Source of the DNA: a virus
DNA: 64,000 nt
Direction: 5' to 3' (one strand)
Virus record (IMG/VR): IMGVR_UViG_3300029131_000181
In this document: positions 6,474-38,358 of the stretch, piece by piece
How positions within the stretch are numbered: position 1 is the stretch's first letter
Layout: each line of letters opens with the position of its first letter
Translations under genes and position numbers: made by a program
The notes under the pieces: generated by a model
The model's input: the letters and a program-made list of their open reading frames with translations, nothing else
Told to the model about the DNA's origin: nothing
Databases searched by the model: none

Positions 6474-6514
6474 CAAAAAGGGCGGGCTCCCTAAAAACAG
6501 GAAGTCCGCCCTTT
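6474..6514 (-). terminator. leader hairpin + U-run between promoter and RBS
   Basis: Minus strand AAGGGCGG-loop-CCCGCCCTTTTTGT, immediately before the AAGGAG RBS of gene 6448. Confidence 0.6.
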
Positions 6515-6585
6515 AAGCGAAATTGTGAATGTACGAAAGGCATAAAACCCTTTCGATATAGAATGTTATCTATCGTACAATTTTT

Positions 6586-6613
6586 ATTGTAGTCGGTTCG
6601 CACAGCTTGTCGA
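6586..6613 (-). promoter_or_regulatory. motif-class promoter, copy 2
   Basis: TCGACA-AGCTGTGCGAACCGAC-TACAAT on the minus strand. Confidence 0.55.
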
Positions 6614-6631
6614 GTAAATCAGGTGCAATTT

Positions 6632-7792
6632 TTATGGTTTGCAAATCCCACACGCCGAATACCCTTCCTGGATGAGCTCATCGCGGGGCCCCATATAGTC
6701 GATTCGATTCTTTTGACTCATCGATTCGACTGCAGAGCAATCGGGTTTGTGAAACTTCATAGTGCTCGTGTTCAGAACGTATGTCTCGTCTATGACAAGT
6801 GAAGCTTTGTCCTGTTCATCCTTGGAATCTGCAGCACTACCGGCTTCAATCCGATTTTCATCATGATATTCACCGGAAGTGAAACTTACCTCTTTGCCAT
6901 CCGAGGTGCAGTAAATATCACCCAGCAGGTCTGTGCGATAAACCTCGACACCTTTGTTTTGCAACTTGTCGAGTGTTTCCTGATGTGGATGACCGTAACT
7001 GTTCCCTGTGCCACAAGAAATCACAGCATATGTTGGATTTACCGCATCCAGAAAAGCCTCTGAGGTAGATGTACTTGAGCCATGATGCCCTACTTTCAGA
7101 ACTGTTGACTGAATGTCTTGTCCCGATGCAAGTATCACGTTTTCCGCTTCCTGTTCCGCATCTCCGGTAAAGAGGAACGAGGTGTCTCCATAGACAATAC
7201 GCAAAACAATCGAAGTATTGTTCGTGTCATCGGGAACAGAATTAACACCAACTATCGTGAATTCTGCTTTCCCTAGAGTATAAGTGTCTCCCACATCCGG
7301 TATCGTGATGCCTCCGCCTTTCTGTTCCGCGTGGCTTGCAAAGTCCCGAAATGCTTTGCTGTCGTATTCTGTCACAGGGCATAGAGTCATGTCCGCAGTG
7401 ACGGCCTCAAAGGCACCGGACAAGCCGCCGATGTGGTCTTCGTGCGCGTGAGTCCCAACGACATAATCCAGGTGCCCATCGGTTTCACGCTGCATAACAG
7501 AATATAAGAGGTTAGAATCATCGACATTACCGCCATCAATAAGCATTGAGTGGCCGTCGCAGGTGATAAGGGCGGAATCCGCCTGCCCTACGTCTATAAA
7601 GTGAATGGTAAAGCTGCCGTCCACCGAACCGCCAGCCGTCTGTTCACTGCTTGCAGTGCTTTCTGAGACGACCCCGGTGCTGGATGGACTTTCCGATATT
7701 ATCGGATTCTGACCGCAGCCGGTGAAGCTGAGTGCAAGGAGCGTAGCGATGATTGCCGCCGTGCTCCGGAATAGATTGTTTTTGAGTTTCAT
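6632..7792 (-). CDS. MBL-fold metallo-hydrolase lipoprotein (ComEC C-terminal-domain-like)
   Basis: Lipobox LALSFTGCGQ. HFIDVGQADSALI..GTHAHEDHIGG..GHHGS metallo-beta-lactamase motifs. C-terminal Cys/His cluster HKPDCSAV..CGICKP. Confidence 0.9.
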   Translation of the reverse strand: MKLKNNLFRSTAAIIATLLALSFTGCGQNPIISESPSSTGVVSESTASSEQTAGGSVDGSFTIHFIDVGQADSALITCDGHSMLIDGGNVDDSNLLYSVMQRETDGHLDYVVGTHAHEDHIGGLSGAFEAVTADMTLCPVTEYDSKAFRDFASHAEQKGGGITIPDVGDTYTLGKAEFTIVGVNSVPDDTNNTSIVLRIVYGDTSFLFTGDAEQEAENVILASGQDIQSTVLKVGHHGSSTSTSEAFLDAVNPTYAVISCGTGNSYGHPHQETLDKLQNKGVEVYRTDLLGDIYCTSDGKEVSFTSGEYHDENRIEAGSAADSKDEQDKASLVIDETYVLNTSTMKFHKPDCSAVESMSQKNRIDYMGPRDELIQEGYSACGICKP

Positions 7793-7809
7793 ACTTTTTC
7801 TCCTTTCAA

Positions 7810-7850
7810 CAAAAAAAGCGGACCTACCCCGCTATGGGATAAGTCCGCTT
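7810..7850 (-). terminator. leader hairpin + U-run between promoter and RBS
   Basis: Minus strand AAGCGGAC-loop-GTCCGCTTTTTTTGTTGAAAGGAG, followed by ATG 7792. Confidence 0.65.
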
Positions 7851-7901
7851 AAAATACAGATTGTGAATCCTACTGATTTTTAGTATCTGTTCACATTTTA
7901 T

Positions 7902-7929
7902 ATTGTACGGCGTTCGTATATTTTGGCAA
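7902..7929 (-). promoter_or_regulatory. motif-class promoter, copy 3 (degenerate core)
   Basis: TTGCCA-AAATATACGAACGCCG-TACAAT. Confidence 0.45.
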
Positions 7930-7932
7930 GCG

Positions 7933-8145: not shown

Positions 8146-8146
8146 T

Positions 8147-9106: not shown

Positions 9107-9120
9107 GGCTGCTCCAATCC

Positions 9121-14577: not shown

Positions 14578-14760
14578 CGGACTTCCAACTTTTCACGGGT
14601 TGCCCCGTTACTCAGTATGGATTTCTGCTTCATAGAGCGAGCTTACCGCAAGCCGCAGCTCTTGATAGAGGCTCGCTCTCCACAGACTTTAAGATTCGGT
14701 CGTCCTGACCGTACTGTTCGCCTGTGGTTATGAGGCGGCTGGCGTAGCCAGCATGTCCAT
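14578..14760 (-). ncRNA. TnpB omega RNA / right-end region (extent approximate)
   Basis: GC-rich nested hairpins overlapping and following the tnpB 3' end (GAGAGCGAGCC...GGCTCGCTCTA, CGGGGCAACCCG). By analogy to characterised TnpB loci. Confidence 0.5.
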
Positions 14761-15837
14761 TCCTTTCTTTAGAATGTTTTCTGCTGCATTTTTATCCCTA
14801 TCGTGTGATGTGTTACATTTCGGACAGACCCAATGCCGAACATTGAGGTTTTTTACCTCTTTGTTTTGGTAGCCGCAGCAAGAGCAGGTCTGGCTGCTTG
14901 GATAGAAGGTTGGTATTTTTACAACTACTCTTCCTGCCCAACTGGATTTATAATCAAGTTGTCGGAAGAACTCTCCCCAAGAAACATCGGAAATACTTTT
15001 AGCAAGGTTATGATTGCGAACCATACCATTTACATTGAGGTCTTCTACACAGATGATTTGGTTTTCTTTCACCAGTGTAGATGACAACTTGTGTAGGGCA
15101 TCTTTTCGCTTATTGGTCACTTTTTCGTGGCAGCAAGCCACCTTGATACGTTGCTTCTCCCAGTTGGCAGAACCTTTCTTTTTGCGTGACAGCTTTTTCT
15201 GCTCACGCTTTAGTTTAGCTTCCGCTTTCTGAAGATATTTATTGTTTGGATATTCTTTTCCATTGCTGTCAACAGCAAAAGATTTGATGCCAACATCTAA
15301 ACCGATGACGGTATCTTTAACCGGAAGCGGCATTACTTCTACTTTGCAAAGAATACTTACATAGTATTTGCCGCTTGCTGAGCGACGGATTGTTGCCTTA
15401 CAGATGCGTCCCTCAATGTTGCGACTCTTACGATAACGCATCTTCCCAAGTGTCGGAAGCTGAATGTACTTATCGTCAACTTTAATGCTTTTTGCTTTTG
15501 TAGTTGTATAGCTTTCTTCTCCCCGTTTTCGTTTGAATTGGGGGAACCCTTTACCGTCTTCGAAAAAGCCTTTATAGGCATTATTTAACTGACGACAGCT
15601 ATATTTGAGTGCTTGACTATCTACTTCAGCAAGCCAAGGAAGATAAGTTTTCATCTGAGGAAGCAGATTTTGTGTATCAATATAGCTCATACTTTCACCG
15701 CGCCGTTGATAAGCTTTTATACGCCTATCTAGCATAGAGTTATATACAAAACGGCAGCAGCCGAGCGTTTTATTGATTTTGACTTTCTGTTCTTCTGTTG
15801 GCTCTAGCCGAAATTTATAGCCTTTATGTACTTTCAA
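14728..15837 (-). CDS. tnpB: TnpB (OrfB) RNA-guided nuclease
   Basis: [18 protein letters not shown]-terminus, RuvC motifs ([26 protein letters not shown]) and zinc ribbon CSCCG..CPKCN. TTG start with AGGAGG RBS. Confidence 0.95.
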
Positions 15838-15921
15838 AGTGGCTCACCTCCTTTATGGACTTTTGTGCTCATGAGTTATTCAGACCCCCCGGAAAAAGTT
15901 GAATAGCCCCAAATTCTCCTT

Positions 15922-15969
15922 AACAAACAAAATGCCCCGGCAGCATCCAATTCAGAAGCCGCCAGGGCA
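15922..15969 (-). terminator. leader hairpin + U-run downstream of promoter copy 4
   Basis: Minus strand TGCCCTGGCGGC-loop-GCTGCCGGGGCATTTTGTTTGTTAAGGAG. Two G:U pairs are valid only in the minus-strand RNA. Confidence 0.55.
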
Positions 15970-15991
15970 CAATTCTTATCTTATTAGGGTT

Positions 15992-16019
15992 ATTATATCT
16001 GATTCGCACAGATGTGCAA
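15992..16019 (-). promoter_or_regulatory. motif-class promoter, copy 4
   Basis: TTGCAC-ATCTGTGCGAATCAGA-TATAAT. Now separated from the helicase gene by the tnpB element. Confidence 0.6.
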
Positions 16020-16549: not shown

Positions 16550-16550
16550 C

Positions 16551-16981: not shown

Positions 16982-17009
16982 ATTGTACGCAGTTCGCACA
17001 AAAGAAAAA
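16982..17009 (-). promoter_or_regulatory. motif-class promoter, copy 5 (weak -35)
   Basis: TTTTTC-TTTTGTGCGAACTGCG-TACAAT. The -35 overlaps the U-run of terminator 17000-17041. Confidence 0.5.
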
Positions 17010-17041
17010 GCTACCCAACAGCCATAAGGCCACTGAGCAGC
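17000..17041 (-). terminator. terminator of short transcript
   Basis: Minus strand GCTGCTCAGTGG-loop-CTGTTGGGTAGCTTTTTCTTTT. G:U pairs occur only on the minus-strand RNA. Confidence 0.55.
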
Positions 17042-17087
17042 TTAGTGTGAATTCTATTGTGTGCATAGTATCTTTCGTACAAATTCG

Positions 17088-17115
17088 ATGGTATGAGATT
17101 CGCACGCCGGGTCAA
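17088..17115 (-). promoter_or_regulatory. motif-class promoter, copy 6
   Basis: TTGACC-CGGCGTGCGAATCTCA-TACCAT. Confidence 0.5.
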
Positions 17116-17283
17116 GACACATCGGCAGCTACGCATCCTGGCACCTACGGTTCCAACGGCAAAAAGCGCAGCTACGCAACAAATAAGCAAAAAGAAAAAG
17201 CCGCCCACCCGGTCAGGGGTGAACGGCAGGAAACGCTATCTATGTAAAAAAACGACTGAGTTCGTCAGAGGTCTTGTAATCTA

Positions 17284-20008: not shown

Positions 20009-20044
20009 AAAACAAAAAGGACAACCTCAAAATGAGGCTGTCCT
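20009..20044 (-). terminator. leader hairpin + U-run between promoter copy 7 and gene
   Basis: Minus strand AGGACAGCC-loop-GGTTGTCCTTTTTGTTTT. Confidence 0.6.
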
Positions 20045-20100
20045 TGCAAAAGCGGAATGTTAAAAATAAATTGGTAAGTGGTATCTTTGATACAACATCT

Positions 20101-20128
20101 ATCATAGCCATCTCGCACACATTGTCAA
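20101..20128 (-). promoter_or_regulatory. motif-class promoter, copy 7
   Basis: TTGACA-ATGTGTGCGAGATGGC-TATGAT. Confidence 0.55.
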
Positions 20129-20129: not shown

Positions 20130-20169
20130 CAAAAAAAGACCCTGCCCGCATTTTGCTGCGAGCAGGGTT
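20130..20169 (-). terminator. rho-independent terminator
   Basis: Minus strand AACCCTGCTCGCAGCAAAATGCGGGCAGGGTCTTTTTTT, after gene 20189-20509. Confidence 0.75.
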
Positions 20170-23399: not shown

Positions 23400-23789
23400 T
23401 CAGTCAATATCTAAGTTACCAAAATCATCTGCAGGAGGCTCGTTGTACCAGTCATACTCCTCTGCTTTTTCATCATCCAAATCGTCATCAAAGAAGTCGT
23501 CATCAGTGACGGGAATGTCTTCCCTGATGTCCTGCTGTGGCACGAACGTGGCAGCGGTAGCGGTATAGTCGCCGTCTTCGAGCACAATCTGCACGGTTGC
23601 GATATCCCCTACTTTGGGGACAGAACCGTTCTGAACGGATGCATCGGGGTTACGCTGGACATCCACCTCGACATCGAGCGCCGGGATGAAGACCACGATG
23701 GTCTTGTGGGTGACGGTAGTCACGGTTCCGGAGTAAGCGGCTTCGTTTTCGTGAATGTCCTGGCGGACGGTTTTCTTAGTATTAAACAT
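23400..23789 (-). CDS. hypothetical protein with beta-rich N-terminal half and highly acidic tail
   Basis: 129 aa, RBS GAGG. Tail DDDFFDDDLDDEKAEEYDWYNEPPADDFGNLDID. A possible OB-fold/SSB-like organisation is speculative. Confidence 0.65.
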   Translation of the reverse strand: MFNTKKTVRQDIHENEAAYSGTVTTVTHKTIVVFIPALDVEVDVQRNPDASVQNGSVPKVGDIATVQIVLEDGDYTATAATFVPQQDIREDIPVTDDDFFDDDLDDEKAEEYDWYNEPPADDFGNLDID

Positions 23790-25981: not shown

Positions 25982-26862
25982 AACAATTTCCTTTCTCTGC
26001 CCACAATGTTAATATCGTCAGCACTTTTTATAATTGCTTTTATTATATTCTGCGTCAACTCATATTTAGAAATTACATGCTTTTTGGCAGATGCATAAGA
26101 AGCGGCATTCAGACGCATCACATCCTTTTCTTTCGCATTGCGAATCAATCTATTCTCCTTTTGCAACGAAGAGTTGCTGCCGCATGATGTAACGCAGTAA
26201 ATTTTTGGCGACAATATTGTGATAACCATATGATTTGATAAACTATATTCTGTGCCTGTGTTATTCAAACAGCCTGTACCCAGCACAAGCCCTATATCCG
26301 GAAGTAAAATGGCGCTATTGTTTGCTTTATAGATAACGGTTCCTGAACTGTAATATCCAATTTTTACTTTATAGTAGTTCCACTCATTATCAGATAACTT
26401 TGGATGGTTCCCCGTCTGTATAAATTTCATGAAATTGCAAAATGCTTCTTCTGTATCGAACAGTTTTTTTATTTCGTCTATATACGATGGTAGCCTGAAC
26501 AGCATACGCAAGGCATACTCTCCAAGCCAATGCGCAGATTCTTCGGATATTCTATTTTCCGAATTCAAATAAGTTGTTTTATCAATTTCATTAAGAATTT
26601 CGTTCAACTTTTTCGCATCAGAATTCTCAATATCATTGCTCAGGAGTCCTTTTTCAATCTTCCCACGATAGCATTCGTTCCATTTTTTGAGCTCTGGATA
26701 TTCATATAAATTGTTTTCCGCTGCAATACCTTTTACATTTGCCCCTACATGTATAATTTTTCCAGTTTCCTTGTTATATACAAAAAAATTTCCGTCTTTT
26801 CCAGCGAATTTTTTCAGTCGGTATTTTGGCAAATAATGTTGATTTTCATTTTGTACCTTCAT
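25978..26862 (-). CDS. DUF4238-like protein
   Basis: Trimmed to MKVQNENQHYLPKYRLKKFA (AAAGGAGG RBS). The N-terminal HYLPK..LK.F signature is recalled from DUF4238. AT-rich. Confidence 0.6.
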   Translation of the reverse strand: MKVQNENQHYLPKYRLKKFAGKDGNFFVYNKETGKIIHVGANVKGIAAENNLYEYPELKKWNECYRGKIEKGLLSNDIENSDAKKLNEILNEIDKTTYLNSENRISEESAHWLGEYALRMLFRLPSYIDEIKKLFDTEEAFCNFMKFIQTGNHPKLSDNEWNYYKVKIGYYSSGTVIYKANNSAILLPDIGLVLGTGCLNNTGTEYSLSNHMVITILSPKIYCVTSCGSNSSLQKENRLIRNAKEKDVMRLNAASYASAKKHVISKYELTQNIIKAIIKSADDINIVGRERKLL

Positions 26863-27910
26863 CGCCTTGCTTCCTCCTTTTTCTGATAAAAATTCTCTGA
26901 TAAACTGCAGAAAGCTGCACGCCATCAGGGCTTACCGAAAAGTCGCTCCTTCCTCTTTTAACAACTTTTGGTGACATCTTATCTCTTAATGCACCAGAGC
27001 CGGAGATTGTTACGCCATCCGCCTTGAAGAACTTAAAGCCAAGGCTTGTATAATCTTTATCGGCTCTGCAAGGCGTATCATCGAACATGGAACCACCAAC
27101 AATCTCAAACTGCTCCGGATTATACTTATCCAAAAAAGTGATAGGCACGCCCATAACGCCTTCATAGTCCACCGGAATATTCGCAACCCTATCCACATTG
27201 ATGGCCATGTAGTTATCATAGCGGGGGTAGCGCTCTTCCACGTCCGGCAGAGGGTTTCCGTCATCGTCATAGTACCGCTGCCAGAGAATCAGTTTCTCGT
27301 GGCGCTTCTGGATGTCGAGGTTAGTAAACCATCTTGTTAGACCGTTGATTTTCTTTGTTATTCCATTGGGGGTATCAAACTCGGATGGTGAGCTATAACC
27401 AATCCACACTTTGTTTTCTTTCAGAAGTGGAAAAAACTCTTTGTATGTAATGGCGTTCTTATTCCCGATAATCAGGAACTTTTTGCCGTGCTGCATCAGT
27501 GTGCCAACATACTCACGGAATAAGCTGAATGGCGGATTGGTCACCACGATATCACTTTCATCCAGCAAGTCAAGGCATTCCTTGCTCCGGAAATCGCCGT
27601 TGCCTTCCAGCAGGGTTTTTACACCGACTTCCACATCATTATCATCTCCGCCCTCGTACTCCATCTTGTAGGTTGGTTCGGTGTGGTCATAGTGCGTAGA
27701 AATCAGCTTCTTTAAGCCAAGTTCTGCAAAGTTCAGGTGAAAATACCGCCAGAAAGCGGACCATGTCGGGTCGTCACAGTTGCAGAATACAACCTTGCCT
27801 GCGAAATGCTTCTTGTAGTGCCGCAATTCCTCTGCGACATCCTCGATTCTGGTGTAGAACTCATCATTCTTCGCGTCCTTCGCCTTATGAAGGTTATCGT
27901 TCTTTGCCAT
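26846..27910 (-). CDS. N6-adenine DNA methyltransferase (EcoRI-methylase-like family)
   Basis: Trimmed to MAKNDNLHKAKDAKNDEFYTR..VVFCNCDDP..LGLKKLI. Catalytic VVTNPPFS. Confidence 0.85.
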   Translation of the reverse strand: MAKNDNLHKAKDAKNDEFYTRIEDVAEELRHYKKHFAGKVVFCNCDDPTWSAFWRYFHLNFAELGLKKLISTHYDHTEPTYKMEYEGGDDNDVEVGVKTLLEGNGDFRSKECLDLLDESDIVVTNPPFSLFREYVGTLMQHGKKFLIIGNKNAITYKEFFPLLKENKVWIGYSSPSEFDTPNGITKKINGLTRWFTNLDIQKRHEKLILWQRYYDDDGNPLPDVEERYPRYDNYMAINVDRVANIPVDYEGVMGVPITFLDKYNPEQFEIVGGSMFDDTPCRADKDYTSLGFKFFKADGVTISGSGALRDKMSPKVVKRGRSDFSVSPDGVQLSAVYQRIFIRKRRKQGDEGTK

Positions 27911-27923: not shown

Positions 27924-27959
27924 AATAAAAAATCCAGCACCGAATTACTCAGCACTGGA
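27924..27959 (-). terminator. hairpin + U-run directly before the methyltransferase RBS
   Basis: Minus strand TCCAGTGC-loop-GCTGGATTTTTTATTGGGAG. Overlaps the stop of the upstream gene. Confidence 0.5.
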
Positions 27960-29813
27960 TGTATTTTCCGTATTACAATGACCGCATGATGTTTTCTTGT
28001 TTTCTACAAGACTTTGGGTTATCGCAAAGCATTCGTTTCCGCAATCACATTGACATTTCCATCGAGCATGACCGTTTTGGCTTCCTGCTCTCTCAATGAC
28101 CTTTAGCTTACCAAAGTGCATATTAGCTAAATCGTAAGTTCTTCCTTTTTTGACGAACTTATCGCGTGATGGATTTGCTTTCAAAAAGGCATCTGCTTCC
28201 TCTTCTGTCATGCTTTCGTATTCATTGGCAAATAACCAATGATATCCTCCGGCAACTGTACGTAGCTTGTTGCAGCAGTTCAAGATAGGCGAACCGCCGC
28301 TAATCCCGTATTTAAGAGAAGCCTCTTTTGCTGTAGAAAATCTCTCTTTTGTTTCAACGCAAATCACACTCTTGAAGTGTTTTTGTTTATAGCATTCAGG
28401 GCAGTTATGCCCGTATACTCTATCGGCTATTATCATCTTGTAGGAATGACCGTTTTTGCATTTCCACCAGCATTTTTCTGCAGACCCGGATGAGAAATAT
28501 TCGGGCTTCAAATTCTTGTTTTTTTCGTAATCCCATTCAGCAACAATTTCAGGATGTTCTGTAGCAAGGTTGTTCTTTTCGTTCCGTCTTCTTTTGCCTG
28601 TTGTACAAACAGGACATGTTGCGTTTTCTTTTGCTCTGCCATTGATGGGTGCTTCCCATTTATGCCCGCACTTAGAGCAAATCCAATGAACCATTTCTGA
28701 GCTAGATGATGACACCATCATCGGGTCAATGCCTACATTCAGTTCGTAGTCCCATTCTTTCAGGAGTTCCGGATGCCGTCCGCCCATACTTCGTTCAGCT
28801 TTGTAATCTTTGTATTGACGATAGATGTCTTTTGAATCCTTTTGTGTATCAATGTTAGGTTCAGAAACGCCAAGCATCTCTAAGCATTGGCGAATTGCTG
28901 CGTCGAGCGTTGCGTGCCCTCTATTGTTTTCTCTGATGATATTCTCGCTATTACGAATTTCCTGAAGCCCATGCTCGCGAATACGAATTATCCGAATTCC
29001 ATTCTGCTTGCATTTTTCGGACTTTTCTTCGTCATTTTTCACTCTTTTCTCATCAGAATGGTATCGAACACCATCGTATTCTACTGCAGTGCGAATGGAG
29101 GGGATGTAAATGTCCAGCTCTTTTCCAATAACTTTCTTGTTTCCAATAACAGCCTCTGAAAAATACTTTTTTGCATAATACGCTACTGCTTGTTCTTGGA
29201 ACGAGGTCTGTCCTTTATCGATAGTGCTGCATATCGGGCAACTCTTGATACGCTGGATGTAATGATATACGCTTGCCTGCCATTCCGTGCCACAAGCAGA
29301 GCATTTCCACCATACAACAATATTGCTTCCTTGTGTCAGCATACTGACATCTACGTCCTTATTTTTTGCAAAGTCATAGTCTTGCATAGCTTCTGCATTA
29401 TCTACAAGCATTTTCGAAGCTTCGGTAATGTGTTTGCAACAACCGCAAGACTTCACTTTTCCCCGCAGCAAAGAAGAGCGATAAGCAACAAATTCTTTTC
29501 CGCAGCTACACATACAGTTATAACGAATGTTTCTATGCCCCGTGCTTCCAATCGCATCTTCTGCCAAAGAAATAACTTTGATACCGTTGTGTTCTTCGCC
29601 AACCAAATCCTGGTATGTACGTTTACGGTCTTTACCTCGGCAGTCTTTACACTTTAACCCTTTCAAGAGCGCGTCGATACCAATTATCATTGTGTTTCCG
29701 CAGCAGTTACATTTCACCAAATAGGTATCTGCTTTTGAATTAGAGCCGGGGATAGTTTCGAAAACTGTTAAATCTCCGTATGTTTTGCCTGTTCTATTTA
29801 TTTTCGCCGCCAT
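27945..29813 (-). CDS. mosaic zinc-ribbon / Vsr-like endonuclease / NUMOD-like HTH protein (homing-endonuclease-like)
   Basis: 622 aa. CxxC ribbons throughout. KELDIYIPSIRTAVEYDGVRYH is a Vsr/DUF559-type core. HPELLKEWDY..WICSKCGHKW is a DUF4379-like ribbon. FSTAKEASLKYGISGGSPILNCC..GGYHW is a NUMOD/IENR-like HTH. Confidence 0.75.
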   Translation of the reverse strand: MAAKINRTGKTYGDLTVFETIPGSNSKADTYLVKCNCCGNTMIIGIDALLKGLKCKDCRGKDRKRTYQDLVGEEHNGIKVISLAEDAIGSTGHRNIRYNCMCSCGKEFVAYRSSLLRGKVKSCGCCKHITEASKMLVDNAEAMQDYDFAKNKDVDVSMLTQGSNIVVWWKCSACGTEWQASVYHYIQRIKSCPICSTIDKGQTSFQEQAVAYYAKKYFSEAVIGNKKVIGKELDIYIPSIRTAVEYDGVRYHSDEKRVKNDEEKSEKCKQNGIRIIRIREHGLQEIRNSENIIRENNRGHATLDAAIRQCLEMLGVSEPNIDTQKDSKDIYRQYKDYKAERSMGGRHPELLKEWDYELNVGIDPMMVSSSSSEMVHWICSKCGHKWEAPINGRAKENATCPVCTTGKRRRNEKNNLATEHPEIVAEWDYEKNKNLKPEYFSSGSAEKCWWKCKNGHSYKMIIADRVYGHNCPECYKQKHFKSVICVETKERFSTAKEASLKYGISGGSPILNCCNKLRTVAGGYHWLFANEYESMTEEEADAFLKANPSRDKFVKKGRTYDLANMHFGKLKVIERAGSQNGHARWKCQCDCGNECFAITQSLVENKKTSCGHCNTENTSSAE

Positions 29814-29832: not shown

Positions 29833-29868
29833 TAAAAAATCCTATGCAGAATCTCTCTGCATAGGATG
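29833..29868 (-). terminator. hairpin + U-run directly before RBS of gene 29813
   Basis: Minus strand ATCCTATGCAGAGAGATTCTGCATAGGATTTTTTATTAAAGAGGG. Confidence 0.65.
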
Positions 29869-30111
29869 CCTTTTTACTTATTTGAATAAGGCTGTTTATT
29901 TCTTCCGTCTGAATCTATTATGTCACGGGCTGGTCCCCACAAAAAAATGAGCGTTAAATGTGCGGAAACGCACAAAAAACGCACGCACACATTTTTTGAA
30001 TGATGCGTGCGTTTATGATAGCTTTTATTTAATGAAATGAGAGAATATATAGTGGCACTTCAGAGTAGGGCTTTCTGCTTTCCCCTGTACCCTGTCGTTG
30101 ATGGATGCTTT

Positions 30112-30246
30112 TCATTTGCGCCCGCACTTGGTGCAGACCCAGTAAACAGCATTTGTGCCGGAAGCTGTTACCTGCATCGGGTCGATGCGGGTGTTGAGCT
30201 TACGGTTCCAGTTGTCGCGCAGTTCCGGATGAAATTTAGAAAACAC
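30112..30246 (-). pseudogene. orphan single zinc-ribbon repeat fragment
   Basis: Read by eye: ..FSKFHPELRDNWNRKLNTRIDPMQVTASGTNAVYWVCTKCGRK*. Matches the HPEL..W..N...DP......S...V.W.C.KCG unit of the 622-aa protein. No ATG or RBS. Confidence 0.55.
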
Positions 30247-30278
30247 AAAAAGAAGCCGCAGAAACCTATCCTCTGCGG
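30247..30278 (-). terminator. rho-independent terminator just downstream of promoter copy 10
   Basis: Minus strand CCGCAGAGGATAGGTTTCTGCGGCTTCTTTTT. Confidence 0.65.
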
Positions 30279-30304
30279 CTACACTTATTTATCTTATATT
30301 TCCT

Positions 30305-30332
30305 ATCATATCCAATTCGCACGGATGCACAA
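30305..30332 (-). promoter_or_regulatory. motif-class promoter, copy 10
   Basis: TTGTGC-ATCCGTGCGAATTGGA-TATGAT. Confidence 0.5.
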
Positions 30333-30568: not shown

Positions 30569-31969
30569 ATGATTTATGTTAACCTCGCCATGCCCGTGAT
30601 TTTCTATAAGCAGCTGCCCGGCATCGCTAAGAAGCTGGATGTGGATGCTGATTTTTTGAAAGGCTTTCTCACCAACGCCAGGTGTTATGTCGAGGATGCC
30701 GGAAAAGGTGAAGTGCTTGAGCTGGACAACTCGGCCGACACGATAACGAAAGTTGTCGCAACCCATGAGAAGCGTTTCTATGGCGCGGAAGCCATTGTGG
30801 AATTCGCCAAGAGCAAAGGCGTGGATATTCCTGCACTGAACCATTTTGAACTTGGTGCAGATATCTCTGCCCATGCAACGGAAGACCAAGTTGCCAACAT
30901 CACTGCATTGGCCGCACGAGTCGAGCGCCTCAATAATCGGTACAAGAGTCTTGCCCGGCTTGAAGCCCCGGACGTCATCCTGATGAACGAAGCAAGGATG
31001 GTGCGTGACGCAGTAGAGCAGCTGGAAGATAACAGCGGTACATACTCCCCGGCTCTTGACCAGAACGGGGTTGCCTATCAATCCTTGAAGGATATTGGGT
31101 ATTCTCTTGTCACCGGTTGGGACAAGTCGGTACTTGAAAAGAACAGCAATAAGGATACGGAGGCCACCTTTCCCAAAGAGCCCGACTTTCAAAGGCTGGC
31201 ATCGCTGGTCAAAAAAGCCATCGGAACCCGCACACAGGGTAAGTTTGCGTTTCAAGCGGGGCTGACTCGTGGATATATCAGTAACCTTGCGAACGGCAAC
31301 GCGAAAGCTCAGCCGACCGAGAATACCATCAAGAAAATTGCAAGCGCAACAGATGCTGTCACGGAGAACGAGCTTCGTATCGCCTGTGGGTATGAGCCCT
31401 TGCCTGACGACGGGAAAGACAAGCTCTCTATGCAGCGTGCAAGCATGTCTGATGACGCATGGCAGAAAGACAACGTGGATGCATTCCTCTCTTTTCTGAA
31501 TGAAACGATTCCAATGTCCACTCCTCTTTCGTCCACTGAAATTCTTCAAGCTCTTTTCAAGGAAAAATACGGTGACAAGAACGACCAGATTCTGCTGGAA
31601 AAGGTCTCTGCCCCCGGCACCTATCGTACGGAAGGTACGGCTGCTAATGTCATTCTACCCATTCGTCTTTGTTGGTTCAGCTTCAAGCGGATGCTGATGC
31701 AGACTCTCTATGTAGGACTTATCGGGCATTACAGCAAAAACGATGAGCTGTACATTACCGGATACATTTCTTCTGTGAAAGAGCTGCATGACGCGGTTCC
31801 GGCGCTGCGAGGCGGCATTGATGCGGCCTATGACGCGAGTCTGCCGGAGGGAATCGACATCATGAAGTTCCCGGTATTTTACACGGCTTCCAATGTTCAG
31901 GAAGCATACAAGCGGGTCCAGCAGAAAATCGTCTCCAAAATTGACGAGTCAGCCGCCGTAAGCTTGTGA
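30569..31969 (+). CDS. XRE-type HTH-containing protein
   Basis: 466 aa with RBS AAAGGAG. Internal TRTQGKFAFQAGLTRGYISNLANGN is HTH_3-like. The 344-aa minus ORF opposite is a shadow. Confidence 0.75.
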   Translation: MIYVNLAMPVIFYKQLPGIAKKLDVDADFLKGFLTNARCYVEDAGKGEVLELDNSADTITKVVATHEKRFYGAEAIVEFAKSKGVDIPALNHFELGADISAHATEDQVANITALAARVERLNNRYKSLARLEAPDVILMNEARMVRDAVEQLEDNSGTYSPALDQNGVAYQSLKDIGYSLVTGWDKSVLEKNSNKDTEATFPKEPDFQRLASLVKKAIGTRTQGKFAFQAGLTRGYISNLANGNAKAQPTENTIKKIASATDAVTENELRIACGYEPLPDDGKDKLSMQRASMSDDAWQKDNVDAFLSFLNETIPMSTPLSSTEILQALFKEKYGDKNDQILLEKVSAPGTYRTEGTAANVILPIRLCWFSFKRMLMQTLYVGLIGHYSKNDELYITGYISSVKELHDAVPALRGGIDAAYDASLPEGIDIMKFPVFYTASNVQEAYKRVQQKIVSKIDESAAVSL

Positions 31970-32042: not shown

Positions 32043-32462
32043 ATGCAAATGTTCGTCAATAATAACCTGTCATATGGTAGAGGTTATGTTTACAATATTC
32101 AATATCATATTGTGTGGTGTACAAAGTACAGAAAACCAGTTTTGATAAACGAAACAGAACAATCGCTAAAAGAGTCTCTGCAGCAGACCGCCGAAACCAT
32201 AAAAATCAATATTGTAGAAATGGAATGCATGCCTGACCATATTCACCTGTTGGTGGAGTGTTCACCGCAGCATTTTATCCCGGATATGATAAAAGTGCTT
32301 AAAGGCAACAGTGCAAGAGCTATTTTTATCGCCAATCCGGACTTGAAGAAGCAACTTTGGGGCGGGCATCTTTGGAACCCAAGCTACTTTATTGCAACCG
32401 TCAGTGATAACACGCGCAAACAAGTACAAGAATACATTGCATCTCAAAAAATAAGAAACTGA
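32043..32462 (+). CDS. tnpA: IS200/IS605 Y1 (HUH) transposase TnpA
   Basis: YNIQYHIVWCTKYRKPVL, the PDHIHLLV HUH motif and C-terminal YIASQ tyrosine. Confidence 0.95.
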   Translation: MQMFVNNNLSYGRGYVYNIQYHIVWCTKYRKPVLINETEQSLKESLQQTAETIKINIVEMECMPDHIHLLVECSPQHFIPDMIKVLKGNSARAIFIANPDLKKQLWGGHLWNPSYFIATVSDNTRKQVQEYIASQKIRN

Positions 32463-32480
32463 TGAAAGGGGGGCTTCGCA

Positions 32481-33812
32481 GTGAAAATCACTTCCAGCTA
32501 TGCTGTGGAAATCAAAAAGCAGAAAATGTTCGACAATACTATAAAGATTTATCGCGAAGCCGTTTCTTTCTTGATTGGTTGTTTTAACAAAGAATGGGAT
32601 TCTATTCAAAAAGTAGAGGGTGCCAAATCTCGAAAGAGTTTTGCCGAGAAGTTAATTCATACTACAAAATACAGCACTGCTAAATATGATTTCGATGCCA
32701 AGTTTTATAAGTTCCCTAGTTACCTGCGCAGAGCGGCTATTCAAGCAGCACTCGGCTCTGTAAGCAGCTACTACAGTAGCCATAAGAACTGGGAAGCAAA
32801 CGGCAAGGTTGACAGGGAGCCAAAACTTCAATGCGATAGATTTTGCTTCCCGGCTTTTTATAAGACCGTTATGTATGAGGAAAGCAACAAACCAAACCAG
32901 TGCTATCTGAAGCTGTATAAAAACAATGACTGGGTTTGGGTTCCTATCGCAATGCGTGCCACCGATGTCAAATACATCACGAAATACTGGTCACATTGCG
33001 AAAAGAGTGCTCCTGCACTCGAAAAGAAGTACGGGAAGTATTTCCTACGCTTTGCCTTCGAGGAAGAGGTAAAACTCTCCGAAACTGAAATTCAAGACAG
33101 GCGTATCTGCGCTGTAGACCTTGGTCTCAATACTGACGCCGTGTGCAGCATCATGACTGCCGATGGAACTGTCCTTGCAAGAAAATTTATCAATTTTGCA
33201 AGTGAAAAAGACCATCTGTATCATGTGCTCAACCGTATTAAGCGTAAGCAAAGAGAACATGGACCTAAGAGTGCTGCTGCTATGTGGCGTTACGCCAAAG
33301 CCTTGAATAACGATATAGCGAAAAAGGTTGCTGCTGCGATTACTGAATTTGCTGTGCTTTATTCTGTAGATGTGATTGTTTTTGAACATTTGTCATTTAC
33401 AGGCAAAAAGCACGGTGGCAGTAAGGCACAGAAGCTGTCGATGTGGAAGCGTAATTCCATACAGGATTATGTGGAACACAAGGCGCACCGCTGCGGTATC
33501 CGGATTTCGCGTATCTGTGCTTGGGGGACAAGCAAACTCGCCTTTGATGGCAGTGGTGCTCTCAAGCGTGATGAAACCAATCGTGCCCTTGCAACGTTTG
33601 CAAGCGGCAAACAATACAACTGCGACCTAAGTGCGAGCTACAATATTGGCGCTCGCTACTTTGTCAGAGAGTTGCTAAAACCCTTGCCAGCGATGGTAAG
33701 GTCTCAGCTTTCGGCTAATGTTCCGGATGTTGAGCGTAGAATCCAAGTTACACTTGCCACGCTTAAAGTTCTGTATCCTGAGCTTAAAAAACTCAGTACA
33801 CAGGCAGCGTAA
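32481..33812 (+). CDS. tnpB: TnpB-like RuvC nuclease lacking the zinc-finger cysteines
   Basis: 443 aa with GTG start. RuvC triad candidates are CAVDLGLNTD, VIVFEHL and NCDLSASYNIGARYF. The usual CxxC..CxxC segment is replaced by WGTSKLAFDGSGALKRDETNRALATFASGKQY. Confidence 0.8.
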   Translation: MKITSSYAVEIKKQKMFDNTIKIYREAVSFLIGCFNKEWDSIQKVEGAKSRKSFAEKLIHTTKYSTAKYDFDAKFYKFPSYLRRAAIQAALGSVSSYYSSHKNWEANGKVDREPKLQCDRFCFPAFYKTVMYEESNKPNQCYLKLYKNNDWVWVPIAMRATDVKYITKYWSHCEKSAPALEKKYGKYFLRFAFEEEVKLSETEIQDRRICAVDLGLNTDAVCSIMTADGTVLARKFINFASEKDHLYHVLNRIKRKQREHGPKSAAAMWRYAKALNNDIAKKVAAAITEFAVLYSVDVIVFEHLSFTGKKHGGSKAQKLSMWKRNSIQDYVEHKAHRCGIRISRICAWGTSKLAFDGSGALKRDETNRALATFASGKQYNCDLSASYNIGARYFVRELLKPLPAMVRSQLSANVPDVERRIQVTLATLKVLYPELKKLSTQAA

Positions 33813-34821: not shown

Positions 34822-35274
34822 TTATTTACTCGTTTGTTTTTTTAGCTTGTCCCTCGTTTCCATCAGAATAATCCCAAGCCGGTTCTGACCCGGGATGTTC
34901 CGGCATTTCGGGCAATGGCAGTTTCCCCAGTAGTTATCGTGCCAACTGGTGGTATCTTCCTCGATTGGCTGCGTTCCCGTTTCGAGGAGACGCTGCTTGA
35001 GGTCTTTATTCTGTTCGAATTTAGCCATCACCACGCGGCGCATTACATCGTCCCGGGTTTCGTCCCAGTTGGCAGGGAAAGCCACATGACGGCCAAAATG
35101 CTTAGCCGTTGCCGGAGGCATGTCTGAAAATTGTTTGCGCTCTTCCAGCGGAACCTTGTGGCTCTGAAACGCTGCTTCGGCATTCTTGTAACGAATCCCA
35201 TTCATCACAAATTCGCAAGAATAATAGTTACTCATAAACCAGTAGCGAGGGGTATCTTTTCTAAATCGAATCAT
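34822..35274 (-). CDS. NADAR (YbiA/DUF1768) family protein
   Basis: RYWFMSNYYSCEFVMNGIRYKNAEAAFQSHK and WDETRDDVMRRVVMAKFEQNKDLKQRLLETG are NADAR signatures. Confidence 0.85.
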   Translation of the reverse strand: MIRFRKDTPRYWFMSNYYSCEFVMNGIRYKNAEAAFQSHKVPLEERKQFSDMPPATAKHFGRHVAFPANWDETRDDVMRRVVMAKFEQNKDLKQRLLETGTQPIEEDTTSWHDNYWGNCHCPKCRNIPGQNRLGIILMETRDKLKKQTSK

Positions 35275-35295
35275 ACGAATCTCCTATTCTCTATC

Positions 35296-35850: not shown

Positions 35851-35854
35851 CTTG

Positions 35855-38050
35855 TTACCTCCTGGTTCTTGCCGCCTTCTGTTGTTCGACCCACGCTTCG
35901 GCTTCCTCTACTGTGGCATACACTGCCGTCTCACCGCGCCGGGCAATCTGCTTTCGGGCATTCTGAGCTGCCTGCTCACTCTTGTAAGTTTCATAGCCAA
36001 TGTAGGACCCATCCCATCGGGCAAGGCAGCAATAATATTCGTGGCTCTTAGCGGGAGCTGTCGGGACAAAGGGAGGAGGTACTGCGGGTGTTGCCTGAGT
36101 CGGCTGTGCGGCAGGAATCGGTGTTCCAGTCTTTCTGGCAATTAGATTCTGCTTTTCTGCCATCCAGGCATCAGCTTCCTTCGTATAATAGAAGTACTTT
36201 GCTTCGCAAGTATTGAACAGTGAATAATACAGATTCAACATTTCTTTTTCACTGTTGCAGACCTTCTTGCGAGCCAAATTGTAGCTTGCATCGTAGTAGC
36301 AGCAGATGAAAGCATCCCCACGCGGTGCTTTCTTCGTCTCGTCTTCCTTGTAGTCTGGATACAGCTTGGCGAGGTCTTCTGCCGTATTCTTTTCCGGGTC
36401 CAGCGTGGATGCGTCGAACCCATTCGGAAGTTTCCAGTCATGAGAACTGATGATGTCCAAAAAGCTGCTTGCATAGCGCAATGTCCAGCGCCCAACATGG
36501 ACGAACCCAAAACTTTCAAGACACCGAATCTGTTTCGGGGTAGCCATTCCGCTGGCTCTGCGAGCAATGAGTCGTTTGAGAATTGCAGCGGCAAGGCCCT
36601 GAGATTTGATGGCATCCCCTTTTACGCCGTAGCACGAAATACTATCGATGATGTCATCGGAAGGCTCCTGCCTCTCACTCTCAAACATCGGCTGATAATC
36701 GTTGAGTTCCGGCGCTTCGATGCTGAAAATGTACTGCAGCGGGTCAACCAATCCTCTCGGCTTTTGACGCTGTGCCTTGAGCTTGCGCTGAATCGTATCC
36801 TGCTTTTCGAGTTCACACAGTGCTTTCCGCTTTTCCTCGTCCAGCTCAGTCTGTGCTTCCTCGATTGCCTCAATCAGCCCCAATTCAGGACTCCCGAAAT
36901 TCTCCTGGCTATTCGAACCGGTGAGTGCCGCATCCGCCAGCATATCGGTGGTCTTTTGTGCCACTTCTTGGTCTTCACAGAAAATATCAGCAGGATGGCA
37001 AAGACTATGTTTCTTTGTCAGCCACAGGAAATCCAGCACGAGAAGATTCTTTTTCCCTTCACACAGACGTGTTCCGCGTCCCACAATCTGCGCATACAGG
37101 CTGCGGCTCCTGGTAGGACGCAGGCAAATGATGCAGTCAACGGTCGGGCAATCCCAGCCTTCCGTCAGAAGCATCGCGTTCGTGAGCGCCTTGTACTCGC
37201 CGTTGTCGAATCCTTTCAGAACGTCCTCGCGGTCCGCAGACGCGCCATTGACTTCTGCAGTCTTGAAGTTCCGCTTATTGAGGATATTGCACAGTCTTTT
37301 GCTGATTCGTACCAGAGGCGTAAAGATAACGGTCTTTCGGTTCTGGCATTCTCGTACAATGGCATCCGCAATCGTGTCCAGATACAGGTCAAGAACATTG
37401 CCGAGGTCCTGAGCACTGAAATCACCGGCGTTGATATGGACTTTGCTGATATCCACCTTGACAGGAATCGTCTTCGTGTTGATTTTGCAGAGATAACCTT
37501 CCCGAATTGCATCCGGAAGCTTATATTCAAATGCAAGACTATCAAAGATATCAGATAGGGATTTCATGTCGCTTCGGTCGGGTGTTGCGGTCACGCCCAA
37601 CACTTTGGCATCGATGAAATGCTCGAGAATTCCCTTGTAAGTTTTGGTTGCCGTGTGATGCGCTTCATCAATGATGATAGTCCCGAAATAATCACGCGGA
37701 TACTTCATTAACCGATTCTGCTTAGAGAGAGTCTGTACACTGGCAACCACGACCATCTTATCGGAATCGAGCGCCGAGCTTTGTGCTTTCTCTAACGCGG
37801 TCTCTAGCCCCGTCACCATCTTGAGCTTGTCGCTTGCCTGCTGTAAAAGCTCTTCCCGGTGCGCAAGAATCAAAACGTGTTCGCCCTTTGCCACCTGGTC
37901 GTTCACGATGCTTGCAAACACAATAGTTTTGCCGGTTCCGGTCGGCATCACAACCAGCGTTTTCTTATTCCCGGCATCCCACTCCCTGTGAATCGCTGCA
38001 GCAGCTTCCTGTTGGTAGGGCCGGGAGTCAATCTTCTTTGTCATTGTCAT
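35855..38050 (-). CDS. SF2 DEAD/DEAH-box helicase (type III restriction Res-like core) with C-terminal extension
   Basis: SRPYQQEA (Q motif), MPTGTGKT (motif I), IIIDEAHH (motif II), GVTATP (motif III). Confidence 0.9.
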   Translation of the reverse strand: MTMTKKIDSRPYQQEAAAAIHREWDAGNKKTLVVMPTGTGKTIVFASIVNDQVAKGEHVLILAHREELLQQASDKLKMVTGLETALEKAQSSALDSDKMVVVASVQTLSKQNRLMKYPRDYFGTIIIDEAHHTATKTYKGILEHFIDAKVLGVTATPDRSDMKSLSDIFDSLAFEYKLPDAIREGYLCKINTKTIPVKVDISKVHINAGDFSAQDLGNVLDLYLDTIADAIVRECQNRKTVIFTPLVRISKRLCNILNKRNFKTAEVNGASADREDVLKGFDNGEYKALTNAMLLTEGWDCPTVDCIICLRPTRSRSLYAQIVGRGTRLCEGKKNLLVLDFLWLTKKHSLCHPADIFCEDQEVAQKTTDMLADAALTGSNSQENFGSPELGLIEAIEEAQTELDEEKRKALCELEKQDTIQRKLKAQRQKPRGLVDPLQYIFSIEAPELNDYQPMFESERQEPSDDIIDSISCYGVKGDAIKSQGLAAAILKRLIARRASGMATPKQIRCLESFGFVHVGRWTLRYASSFLDIISSHDWKLPNGFDASTLDPEKNTAEDLAKLYPDYKEDETKKAPRGDAFICCYYDASYNLARKKVCNSEKEMLNLYYSLFNTCEAKYFYYTKEADAWMAEKQNLIARKTGTPIPAAQPTQATPAVPPPFVPTAPAKSHEYYCCLARWDGSYIGYETYKSEQAAQNARKQIARRGETAVYATVEEAEAWVEQQKAARTRR

Positions 38051-38059
38051 ATTTCACCT

Positions 38060-38093
38060 AAAAAAACAAGCAGGCCCGAAATGAGCCTGCCTT
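38060..38093 (-). terminator. hairpin + U-run directly before the helicase RBS
   Basis: Minus strand AAGGCAGGCTCATTTCGGGCCTGCTTGTTTTTTTAGGTG. Confidence 0.7.
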
Positions 38094-38106
38094 ACATTTT
38101 CCCAAT

Positions 38107-38307
38107 TTAGTTCATTGCCCGCTGCATCACAAATATGATGCCGGTTGCCAAAACCATAACGCCAATGTCTCTGACAACGGTTCCGACCCGTTTATCATTG
38201 GTAATGTCCTGATTCCATTCAAATCCCCAACCAATCATAGCGACACCAACCACAATCAAAATAACACCAACAATCGTTAAGCTCTCTTCTGATAAACCGT
38301 ACATCAT
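38107..38307 (-). CDS. small membrane protein
   Basis: ORF trimmed to MMYGLSEESLTIVGVILIVVGVAMIGWG (GGAAAGGAAA RBS). Two TM segments. Confidence 0.6.
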   Translation of the reverse strand: MMYGLSEESLTIVGVILIVVGVAMIGWGFEWNQDITNDKRVGTVVRDIGVMVLATGIIFVMQRAMN

Positions 38308-38322
38308 GCATTTCCTTTCCGC

Positions 38323-38358
38323 AAACAAAAAGCCCCGCACAAGCAATTCATGCGGGGC
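38323..38358 (-). terminator. leader hairpin + U-run between promoter copy 11 and RBS
   Basis: Minus strand GCCCCGCATGAATTGCTTGTGCGGGGCTTTTTGTTT. Confidence 0.7.

Follow-up and report, generated by a model that had tools for sequence, protein, structure and literature searches.

A conserved, terminator-ended leader RNA as a probable default-off switch for accessory and anti-defence genes of a large virus-like element from gut Clostridia

Leader terminators under the control of antitermination are textbook biology, usually found at one or two sites per phage or operon. LoaP, a NusG paralogue, belongs to Bacillus polyketide operons that carry a leader hairpin together with leader terminators (PMC12691694), and pLS20 has the conAn2 RNA and a zipper-type attenuator (PMC13401043). 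T4-type phages contain promoter/stem-loop cassettes (PeSLs; PMC2839356, PMC4122927). Promoter-proximal terminators and small RNAs derived from 5' untranslated regions (5' UTRs) have been mapped experimentally in the giant phage 201phi2-1, where the terminators were suggested to time expression and an antiterminator was suspected, not identified (PMC11512511). Here we analyze 64,000 nucleotides (nt) of IMG/VR record IMGVR_UViG_3300029131_000181, the whole of which is called the window below, from what is treated, on sequence grounds, as a large (about 260–295 kb), uncultivated virus-like element of gut Clostridia. A conserved leader-RNA module, placed between a distinctive promoter and the ribosome-binding site (RBS) and ending in an intrinsic terminator, probably serves there as a default-off switch for accessory and anti-defence genes. 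Coordinates are those of the window, and features lie on the minus strand unless marked (+).

The arrangement resembles that of lambdoid Q (pR', 6S RNA, tR'), where a strong terminator lies about 50–200 nt past the promoter and before a co-oriented gene block, the default product is a short terminated RNA, a conserved element sits between -35 and -10, and a -10-like hexamer lies in the initially transcribed region. The Q system has one unit per genome, whereas the window element has many; its spacer element also occurs at non-terminated promoters, no Q-family protein was found in the window, and the leader is a covarying structured RNA, which Q does not need. Shared with LoaP are the Firmicutes setting, a leader RNA element followed by intrinsic terminators in leader and operon, and (for the window leaders, as a proposal) factor-dependent read-through. 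LoaP controls one or two adjacent operons, in contrast to dozens of dispersed leaders here, and no paralogue with NGN plus KOW domains was detected; the Pfam results contain no NusG or KOW match. As with HK022 put, EAR and pLS20 conAn2, a structured 5'-leader RNA of a mobile-element operon would decide whether terminators are obeyed. Put, EAR and conAn2 are found once or twice in each element and lack a terminator of their own directly behind them; none matches the leaders in sequence or structure (Rfam), and no zipper-like leader-terminator complementarity as in pLS20 was found. The RAT elements of LicT/BglG and the ANTAR and HutP systems likewise place a conserved RNA sequence just 5' of a leader terminator, with overlap into the terminator's 5' arm, but their conserved alternative hairpin, dual hexaloop motif and UAG repeats are missing from the leaders, and the window gave no cognate protein domain. 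PeSLs are also short composites of promoter and stem-loop that recur many times at boundaries of variable accessory genes within large phage genomes; the PeSL stem-loop ends the upstream gene before the promoter, whereas the window leaders add a second terminator past it. Phage 201phi2-1 shares terminators immediately past promoters in a giant phage, and differs in its Pseudomonas host, its own polymerases and the lack of a shared multi-copy leader family.

Terminators and promoters of the minus strand

A preliminary description of this DNA had placed twelve terminator hairpins on its minus strand. All twelve were recovered within a few bases as stable minus-strand RNA hairpins, each followed by a U-run: 6474–6514 (folding free energy ΔG -25.8 kcal/mol), 7810–7850 (-26.0 kcal/mol), 15922–15969 (-28.9 kcal/mol), 17000–17041 (-22.0 kcal/mol), 20009–20044 (-20.2 kcal/mol), 30247–30278 (-16.9 kcal/mol), 38323–38358 (-19.6 kcal/mol), 1497–1535 (-19.0 kcal/mol), 27924–27959 (-16.5 kcal/mol), 29833–29868 (-18.3 kcal/mol), 38060–38093 (-17.0 kcal/mol) and 29972–30012 (-19.3 kcal/mol). 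Across this range (-16.5 to -28.9 kcal/mol), the z-scores of -2.7 to -6.6 against dinucleotide shuffles, a comparison set as a test beforehand, are distinct from shuffled sequence; the weakest of the twelve are 29972–30012 and 1497–1535. A strict scan (uninterrupted stem of at least 9 base pairs [bp], loop of 3–8 nt, T-run) found 19 stems on the minus strand versus two on the plus strand, and 0.73 ± 0.85 in block-wise dinucleotide shuffles. A permissive terminator finder, which returned 41 versus 40 matches on the two strands, was set aside as non-specific.

The argument from G:U pairs, by which the preliminary description had favoured function in the transcript, is borne out by folding. The minus-sense RNA is the more stable for 20 of 21 hairpins, by a mean difference of -4.9 kcal/mol, and one to five G:U pairs occur in 20 of the 21 sense stems (none in 29867), compared with zero to two in the antisense stems. 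Bacillus terminator stems average 9 ± 2 bp (PMC10325885); those of the leader terminators measure 11–17 bp, and their A-rich 5' flanks pair and covary with the U-run (e.g., GUAAACAA/UUGUUUAC and CGC/GCG). Because the stems are far above the Bacillus average and the A-rich flank pairs with the U-run, default termination should be efficient. Judged by their GC-rich stems, the U-run on the transcribed strand and a stability above that of shuffled sequence, the hairpins are genuine intrinsic terminators of minus-strand transcripts.

About 19 minus-strand promoters in the window share the motif TTGC-N6-GTGCGAA-N5-TAnAAT; GTGCGAA-N5-TAnnAT has 16 matches with at most one mismatch in the 18-mer, all 16 on the minus strand. 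With transcription start sites placed from the -10 position, a leader of 50–135 nt and a terminator follow nine of these promoters (1611, 6603, 7919, 16009, 17105, 20118, 30322, 38409 and 48331), and a short leader without terminator follows nine others (63475, 48164, 46277, 42768, 41557, 39142, 20981, 20575 and 16999). The earlier suggestion that most operons would be shut off was thus overstated. GTGCGAA is found at all motif promoters, terminated and non-terminated, and so belongs to the promoters in general and does not single out terminated units; being common to both classes, it cannot alone be the antitermination signal.

The elements recur in the order operon-end terminator, promoter, leader, leader terminator and RBS, as at 38468/38409/38358, 20168/20118/20045, 17227/17105/17043 and 1698/1611/1528. 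The conventional operon-end terminator at 38437–38468 lies just upstream of promoter 38409, and those at 20139–20168, 17200–17227 and 1667–1698 are laid out alike. The order promoter, hairpin, RBS had been described for these units and holds behind promoters 1611, 6603, 7919, 16009, 20118, 30322 and 38409, with a poor RBS at gene start 19952; it fails at 17105, where a second promoter follows. Units 17105 and 48331 are both directly succeeded by a second motif promoter instead of a gene, and since promoter 16982–16999 comes after the 17105 leader terminator, the gene at 16958 is independent of read-through.

Strong terminators also occur inside operons, just 5' of an RBS and with no promoter between. 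The terminator at 4197–4224, in the operon started by the 6603 leader, comes 20 nt behind a stop codon, and 6 nt separate it from the RBS that follows, without any intervening motif promoter. Those at 27932–27960, 29839–29867 and 38068–38092, whose position had been noted earlier (as 27924–27959, 29833–29868 and 38060–38093), respectively overlap the stop of a gene for a 622-amino-acid (aa) protein and adjoin the RBS of an EcoRI-like methyltransferase, lie directly 5' of the RBS of the same 622-aa DUF4379 gene, and separate a 66-aa gene from the RBS of an SF2 helicase. The sequences at 27932–27960 and 29839–29867 are related (AUCC...GGAUUUUUUAUU), each 5–10 nt 5' of the RBS, and may represent a repeated terminator-RBS junction module.

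A conserved leader-RNA family

The canonical leader RNA at 6472–6581 (84.9 bits with a covariance model; ΔG -42.4 kcal/mol, z -6.7) follows the promoter core 6586–6603 (GTGCGAA-N5-TACAAT, with -35 TCGACA upstream) and folds as a three-way junction plus terminator. Its helices are P1 (UGUACG/CGUACA), a small P1a hairpin and P2 (AAAGG/CCUUU), and the linker AUUCACAAUUUCGC leads to the terminator 6474–6514 (GGGCGGACUUCC...GGGAGCCCGCCC plus U5), the RBS and ATG 6448. The covariance model, built from a MAFFT alignment of 39 copies, all less than 90% similar to one another, gave 138 matches, 103 of them distinct, in 61 sources (related IMG/VR contigs and two Clostridiales metagenome-assembled genomes [MAGs]). 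Four members lie in the window, at 6472–6581 and 7808–7911 and, as degenerate copies that match the model weakly, at 17003–17083 and 20010–20096. From about +1 the consensus reads (U)GUACGAUAGAUA(C/A)CA, a variable hairpin, CGUACAAUUCACAAU and (U)CUGC or UUCGC, and continues after 5–12 nt with GCRGACUY..., a loop, the 3' arm and the U-run. All 86 of the distinct copies listed end in a hairpin and U-run, and the motif promoter lies upstream wherever the flank is present.

Three blocks are invariant, AUAGAUACCA, UUCACAAU and the GCRGACU terminator arm. The MAFFT alignment has twelve consecutive invariant columns (GUACGAUAGAUA), together with other invariant positions, at a mean column identity of 60%; invariant blocks amid freely varying loops and stems argue for selection over recent copying. 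In the same alignment 89% of cells pair in P1, P2 and the terminator versus 38–46% with slid partners, and compensatory changes occur at 5/5 pairs of P2 and 7/12 of the terminator; P1 is nearly invariant and hence uninformative on covariation, and P1a is weakly supported. An alignment of the 103 distinct copies fitted to the model, which is biased towards that model and agrees with the MAFFT result, pairs in 93.5% of cells versus 38–49% when slid, with 19 of 23 pairs compensated. The sequences comprise close relatives and paralogous copies, and the cell counts do not represent independent events. Short variants that lack P1 and P2 keep AUAGAUACCA, UUCACAAU, CUG and GCRGACU at varying inter-block spacing, and these retained blocks are therefore taken as the core.

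Searching the whole window with Rfam 15 gave no family on any leader, whether at the gathering threshold or with E ≤ 5. The motif strings do not occur in the searchable literature, where the only returns were unrelated primer matches. The canonical leader is a well-supported candidate for a new RNA family; by comparative sequence evidence it constitutes a covariation-supported structured leader family outside Rfam, systematically paired with a distinctive promoter. The covariation evidence concerns this canonical family, and the other five terminated leaders are assigned from thermodynamics, position and strand asymmetry. Hammerhead and other ribozymes, T-boxes and leader peptides were considered and dropped, there being no core motifs, Rfam match or leader open reading frame (ORF).

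The position of the leaders relative to genes is constant and the genes are not. A Shine-Dalgarno (SD) sequence and start codon lie within 120 nt of 90 of the 99 distinct core-carrying leaders, with a median of 26 nt (interquartile range 21–31 nt) from the end of the U-run to the start codon, and the first genes behind them represent at least 36 unrelated protein families. The module recurs every 1–4 kb before unrelated genes; a related 10.8-kb locus holds five successive small operons, each opening with a terminator, a promoter, the leader and its terminator. Leaders of near-identical sequence stand before different genes, and gene content varies among near-identical contigs. A fixed place before the SD and start of unrelated genes is the signature of a generic 5'-UTR module. 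It speaks against a riboswitch for one metabolite and, in the majority of copies, against an independent small-RNA gene. On this evidence a single genome carries the module dozens of times before unrelated genes, of which many probably serve in counter-defence.

Proposed read-through and its alternatives

Since the comparative data indicate that the canonical leaders are under selection as RNA, cis-regulatory attenuation or antitermination is the best reading of them. Tentatively, and with a confidence that stops just short of even, we propose that factor-dependent read-through of default-on terminators gates this class of operons. Each unit would comprise the terminator of the previous operon, a sigma-A-like promoter with the GTGCGAA spacer element, a leader of 50–135 nt, a strong terminator and, some 26 nt further on, an RBS with its start codon. 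In the default state RNA polymerase would halt and release a short leader RNA, leaving the genes behind it, mostly accessory and candidate anti-defence genes, off or very low. Their expression would need read-through, most likely by a trans-acting factor encoded by the element or its host. This factor would recognize the conserved leader core (AUAGAUACCA ... UUCACAAU-CUG ... GCRGACU) and either make polymerase terminator-resistant or block pairing of the hairpin's 5' arm. A single signal would thereby turn on dozens of unrelated operons together and carry polymerase through their extra internal terminators. Efficient termination in vivo, its conditional override and the nature of the factor are what we infer. 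An attenuation or antitermination circuit had also been predicted in the preliminary description; the anatomy and the RNA-level selection on canonical leaders agree with it, but its extension to most operons does not hold, and two of the units precede another promoter.

A conserved antiterminator helix was not found by RNAalifold in full or 3'-truncated alignments, which gave P1 and P2 alone before the 3' arm and the terminator alone in the full alignment. With no conserved alternative helix, read-through, if any, would need a factor, and a self-contained RNA switch is unlikely. A small TCUGC/GCAGA pairing seen by eye has an equally plausible rival, in which the terminator stem is extended across the U-run. 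The genes almost all point the same way, which fits read-through as the mode of expression.

The evidence does not separate a processive from a local mode of action. Processive antitermination is favoured by the absence of the core motif from internal terminators, 4224 of a canonical operon among them, by the co-orientation of genes and by the terminated leaders of other types, which share just the promoter and an AGAUA-type start region; local occlusion is favoured by the identity of the never-lost blocks, which are the linker and the start of the 5' arm. It is possible, if on the unlikely side, that the canonical leader is a new multi-copy antitermination signal, either a put-like RNA that would itself confer terminator resistance on host RNA polymerase or the recognition site of a novel kind of phage antiterminator. 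It would bring accessory and anti-defence operons, dozens of them and mutually unrelated, under a single switch in a widespread gut Clostridia element of about 270 kb.

Several observations weigh against factor-dependent read-through. No antiterminator gene was recognizable in the window, which covers about 64 of about 270 kb or about a quarter of the element, or in about 1.2 Mb of related loci. As stated earlier for N, Q and LoaP, the window has no recognizable gene of these types: Pfam, including precomputed results for near-identical contigs, gave no N, Q, CAT or ANTAR gene among window proteins, and phmmer found no NusG paralogue at E ≤ 10 among 5,992 window and related-locus ORFs with an approximate E. 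coli NusG query sequence. Stems of about 15 bp made a pLS20 terminator resist one processive antitermination system (PMC10325885), and the leader-terminator stems of 11–17 bp reach that length. Five of the nine terminated window leaders lack the canonical core and have too few distinct homologues for covariation; for these non-canonical leaders and the conventional terminators, pairs taken from the minimum free energy fold of the whole segment also inflate the counts of broken pairs. Units 17105 and 48331, in preceding another promoter, look like free-standing small-RNA genes. Finally, constitutive partial termination could also account for the sequences.

The last point has its fullest form in a model of constitutive attenuators carried by mobile cassettes, in which the promoter-leader-terminator module would be a fixed damper and insulator through which a strong promoter supplies potentially toxic accessory proteins at a small constant dose, and no antiterminator exists. 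The module would spread, and shuffle genes, by recombination among near-identical copies in the manner of PeSLs, composite terminator/promoter repeats that mediate modular shuffling (PMC4122927, PMC2839356). Recurrence every 1–4 kb before unrelated genes, near-identical leaders with different genes, gene content that differs among otherwise identical contigs and the failure to find an antiterminator all accord with this model. We nevertheless regard it as unlikely: recombination substrates and simple dampers need no invariant single-stranded blocks, conserved 5' junction or compensated 5' arm. Hairpins of -20 to -29 kcal/mol that are extended by A-tract/U-tract pairing should also terminate with high efficiency, and the genes behind them would be nearly silent. 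Local, non-processive antitermination, in which a protein or RNA would bind the linker and 5' arm (UUCACAAU-CUG...GCRGACU) and block that one hairpin, as LicT/BglG, HutP or ANTAR proteins do, with polymerase unmodified, would explain why even the shortest variants keep the linker together with seven bases at the start of the 5' arm. RNA recognition could also tolerate the varying inter-block spacing, and long stems may resist processive systems (PMC10325885). This mode is doubtful, given that neither a conserved antiterminator hairpin nor a CAT/PRD, ANTAR or HutP-like protein was found in the window, and that core-less internal terminators (4224) and non-canonical leaders would stay unrelieved.

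That the units are genes for trans-acting small RNAs of 50–135 nt, serving as regulators or decoys while the gene behind is expressed by leak or from its own promoter, is improbable. It has in its favour the separate promoter behind two units (17105 and 48331), conserved single-stranded blocks that could be seed regions, and the precedent of small RNAs derived from 5' UTRs by premature termination in giant phage 201phi2-1 (PMC11512511). However, 90 of 99 leaders sit 20–30 nt before an SD and start codon, with no space for a promoter, and a search of the window for a target or partner complementary to the core blocks gave nothing beyond the opposite strand of the leaders themselves. The three-way junction upstream of the terminator, with its covarying helices and its invariant nucleotides, might suggest a ligand-sensing riboswitch that uses the terminator as expression platform, yet no mutually exclusive antiterminator helix was found, P1 and P2 are dispensable in short variants, 36 unrelated gene families without a metabolic theme lie behind the leader, and Rfam gives no match; we consider such a riboswitch very improbable. 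Equally slight is the likelihood that the conserved blocks act as DNA, either as operators for Mor-family or multi-helix-turn-helix (HTH) proteins or as a sigma-dependent pause element for a Q-like factor. GTGCGAA (-24 to -18) and GTACGAT (+2 to +8) do resemble direct repeats, TAnCAT (about +12 to +17) resembles a -10 element, and the window encodes three Mor-family proteins; variable block spacing, compensatory changes and the strand asymmetry of G:U pairs point instead to RNA, and GTGCGAA also stands at terminator-less promoters.

Individual units and gene content of the element

Besides the 6603 unit, the window contains a short variant of the canonical leader at 7808–7895 (ΔG -32.8 kcal/mol, z -5.1; a 44.5-bit model match spans 7808–7911) behind promoter core 7902–7919 (ATACGAA-N5-TACAAT, -35 TTGCCA). 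In this variant the linker UUCACA pairs with a 5' UGUGAA, and AGAUAC, AUUCACAAUCUG and GCGGACUU are retained; a 15-bp terminator (7816–7850) precedes ATG 7792 of a metallo-beta-lactamase-fold gene. The degenerate unit at 17003–17105 (promoter 17088–17105; GUACGAAAGAUAC...AUUCACAC; 22.4 bits, match 17003–17083) ends in a 16-bp terminator, 17008–17043, whose U-run is the upstream region of promoter 16982–16999; that promoter has a short, terminator-less leader followed by ATG 16958. The other degenerate unit, 20010–20118 (promoter 20101–20118; GUAUCAAAGAUACCA; 28.3 bits, match 20010–20096), has a 13-bp terminator at 20017–20045 before gene start 19952.

The remaining terminated leaders are non-canonical. 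At 15926–16009, promoter 15992–16009, a leader and terminator 15926–15969 make up the 5' UTR of a UvrD-like helicase, from whose ATG at 14568 the leader is now parted by a TnpB element. The hairpin had been called the original helicase leader, and in related contigs the leader and ATG are indeed adjacent, the leader adjoining ATGACACTGAAC without the insertion. The inserted sequence is a TnpB-only IS605-family element (14580–15912) between the leader RBS and the helicase ATG; its 369-aa OrfB_IS605/Cas12f-TNB protein is encoded at 14728–15837, and GAATTTGG stands at both junctions. The unit 30247–30322 has promoter 30305–30322, a short leader and an 11-bp terminator (30254–30280), behind which come further terminators at 29972–30011, about 29940–29984 and 29839–29867, and then the 622-aa gene. 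Downstream of this leader, 30080–30250 contains no intact gene; a remnant resembles a DUF4379-type zinc-finger ORF, and the segment may be a decayed cassette. At 38325–38409, promoter 38392–38409 is followed by a leader of about 60 nt, an 11-bp terminator (38332–38358) and ATG 38307. The unit 1495–1611 (promoter 1594–1611) has a leader of about 90 nt with hairpin GGUCGG/CCGACC and precedes ATG 1481 of the first Mor-family HTH gene; its terminator-like hairpin at 1495–1537 is weaker, with the U-run partly paired.

Promoter 48314–48331 gives a structured RNA of about 135 nt ending in terminator 48176–48210 (unit 48176–48331; ΔG -50.4 kcal/mol, z -3.95), immediately after which lies promoter 48147–48164. 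Placed between two motif promoters and consisting of a long 5' hairpin plus the terminator, the RNA at 48176–48307 is possibly a free-standing small RNA; a related GUACAAGCGGAAAUGGG type is present in many related contigs. The 18-mer GTGCGAATTGCAGACAAT is identical at promoters 48147–48164, 42751–42768 and 41540–41557, which have a GACAAT -10 that misses the first T. None of the three has a leader terminator, one precedes the Mor-family gene at 42224–42553, and together they may be a separate promoter class.

Three small repeat proteins of Mor-family/HTH_23 type are encoded at 954–1481, 446–964 and 42224–42553 (Pfam Mor matches of 38.8, 30.1 and 35.5 bits). The 175-aa Mor-family protein is the most widespread protein of the element, indexed in 1,279 collection blocks. 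These proteins are candidates for the factor that reads GTGCGAA promoters, and Mor-family HTH proteins are more likely to be promoter activators than antiterminators. The 129-aa protein encoded at 23400–23789 has no Pfam match and ends in an acidic C-terminal tail (DDDFFDDDLDDEKAE), which we presume to be akin to the tails of single-stranded-DNA-binding proteins; it is not an obvious antiterminator.

Candidate counter-defence genes form a cluster at 6632–7792, 40017–40904, 34822–35274 and 26846–27910. The metallo-beta-lactamase-fold gene (6632–7792) has a faint match to the Anti-Pycsar protein Apyc1, and the same cluster includes genes for an AcrVA2-like protein, a NADAR protein and an orphan EcoRI-like methyltransferase (Pfam). 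The AcrVA2-like call is a precomputed Pfam result for an identical protein of a relative, and a direct Pfam scan gave no match at E ≤ 0.01. Other window products identified by Pfam include the UvrD-like and SF2 helicases, an Eco57I-like methyltransferase, a GmrSD/HNH protein, several DUF4379 zinc-finger proteins, and SPFH and VWA proteins.

The window also carries IS200/IS605-type insertions. An IS200-type Y1 transposase at 32043–32462 (+) (Pfam E 4e-41) is followed by a weak TnpB-like ORF at 32481–33812 (+); this insertion (32043–33812) apparently interrupts a divergent large HTH_3 regulator, which has 466 aa in the window (30569–31969) versus 628 aa in a related contig. The only Rfam matches in the window, neither of them on a leader, are a hepatitis delta virus (HDV)-like self-cleaving ribozyme and a HEARO RNA. 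The ribozyme, of the Faecalibacterium prausnitzii type, lies at 43594–43663 (RF02682, 60.4 bits, E 1e-8), just 3' of the 564-aa VWA gene and before the next small genes of the same operon. The HEARO/omega-RNA-like match at 54561–54853 (RF02033, 70 bits, below the gathering score of 83; E 4e-12) lies upstream of a gene for an RRXRR plus HNH, IscB-like protein at 53107–54504, and 53107–54853 looks like an IscB-type mobile element.

With a GC content of 42–50%, almost wholly minus-strand transcription and AGGAG-type RBSs, the window encodes proteins with identical counterparts on 260–294 kb human-gut metagenomic contigs, and many IMG/VR viral contigs of 30–270 kb also carry its promoter motif. 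Among 185,579 species-representative genomes, the exact leader pattern occurs in multiple copies only in two 'Clostridiales bacterium' MAGs; three further genomes have a single match, none with a terminator after it. Megablast of 24 kb of the window against INPHARED phages and PLSDB plasmids gave no match, and tblastn with two proteins gave nothing or merely distant matches to SPbeta-like and other Firmicutes phages. Ten long ORFs from related loci contained no capsid, terminase or conjugation hallmark by Pfam; the same ten ORFs included a DNA ligase, an SbcC-like ATPase, RlaP and an AAA protein. Because these searches gave no hallmarks, the identity of the element as phage or plasmid follows the IMG/VR labels only.

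The window thus presents one conserved leader module with dozens of uses per genome before unrelated genes, many of them counter-defence-like (Apyc1-like nuclease, AcrVA2-like protein, NADAR protein, orphan methylases). The element that carries it seems common in human gut metagenomes; from hundreds to more than a thousand collection blocks list its proteins. Should read-through be unconditional, the module would be a Gram-positive counterpart of the T4 PeSL cassettes and a driver of gene shuffling. If read-through is conditional, the leaders would form a genome-wide RNA-level switch for accessory genes, their invariant core blocks would provide a handle for finding a new antiterminator, and the unit would represent a compact, portable default-off 5' module for Firmicutes.

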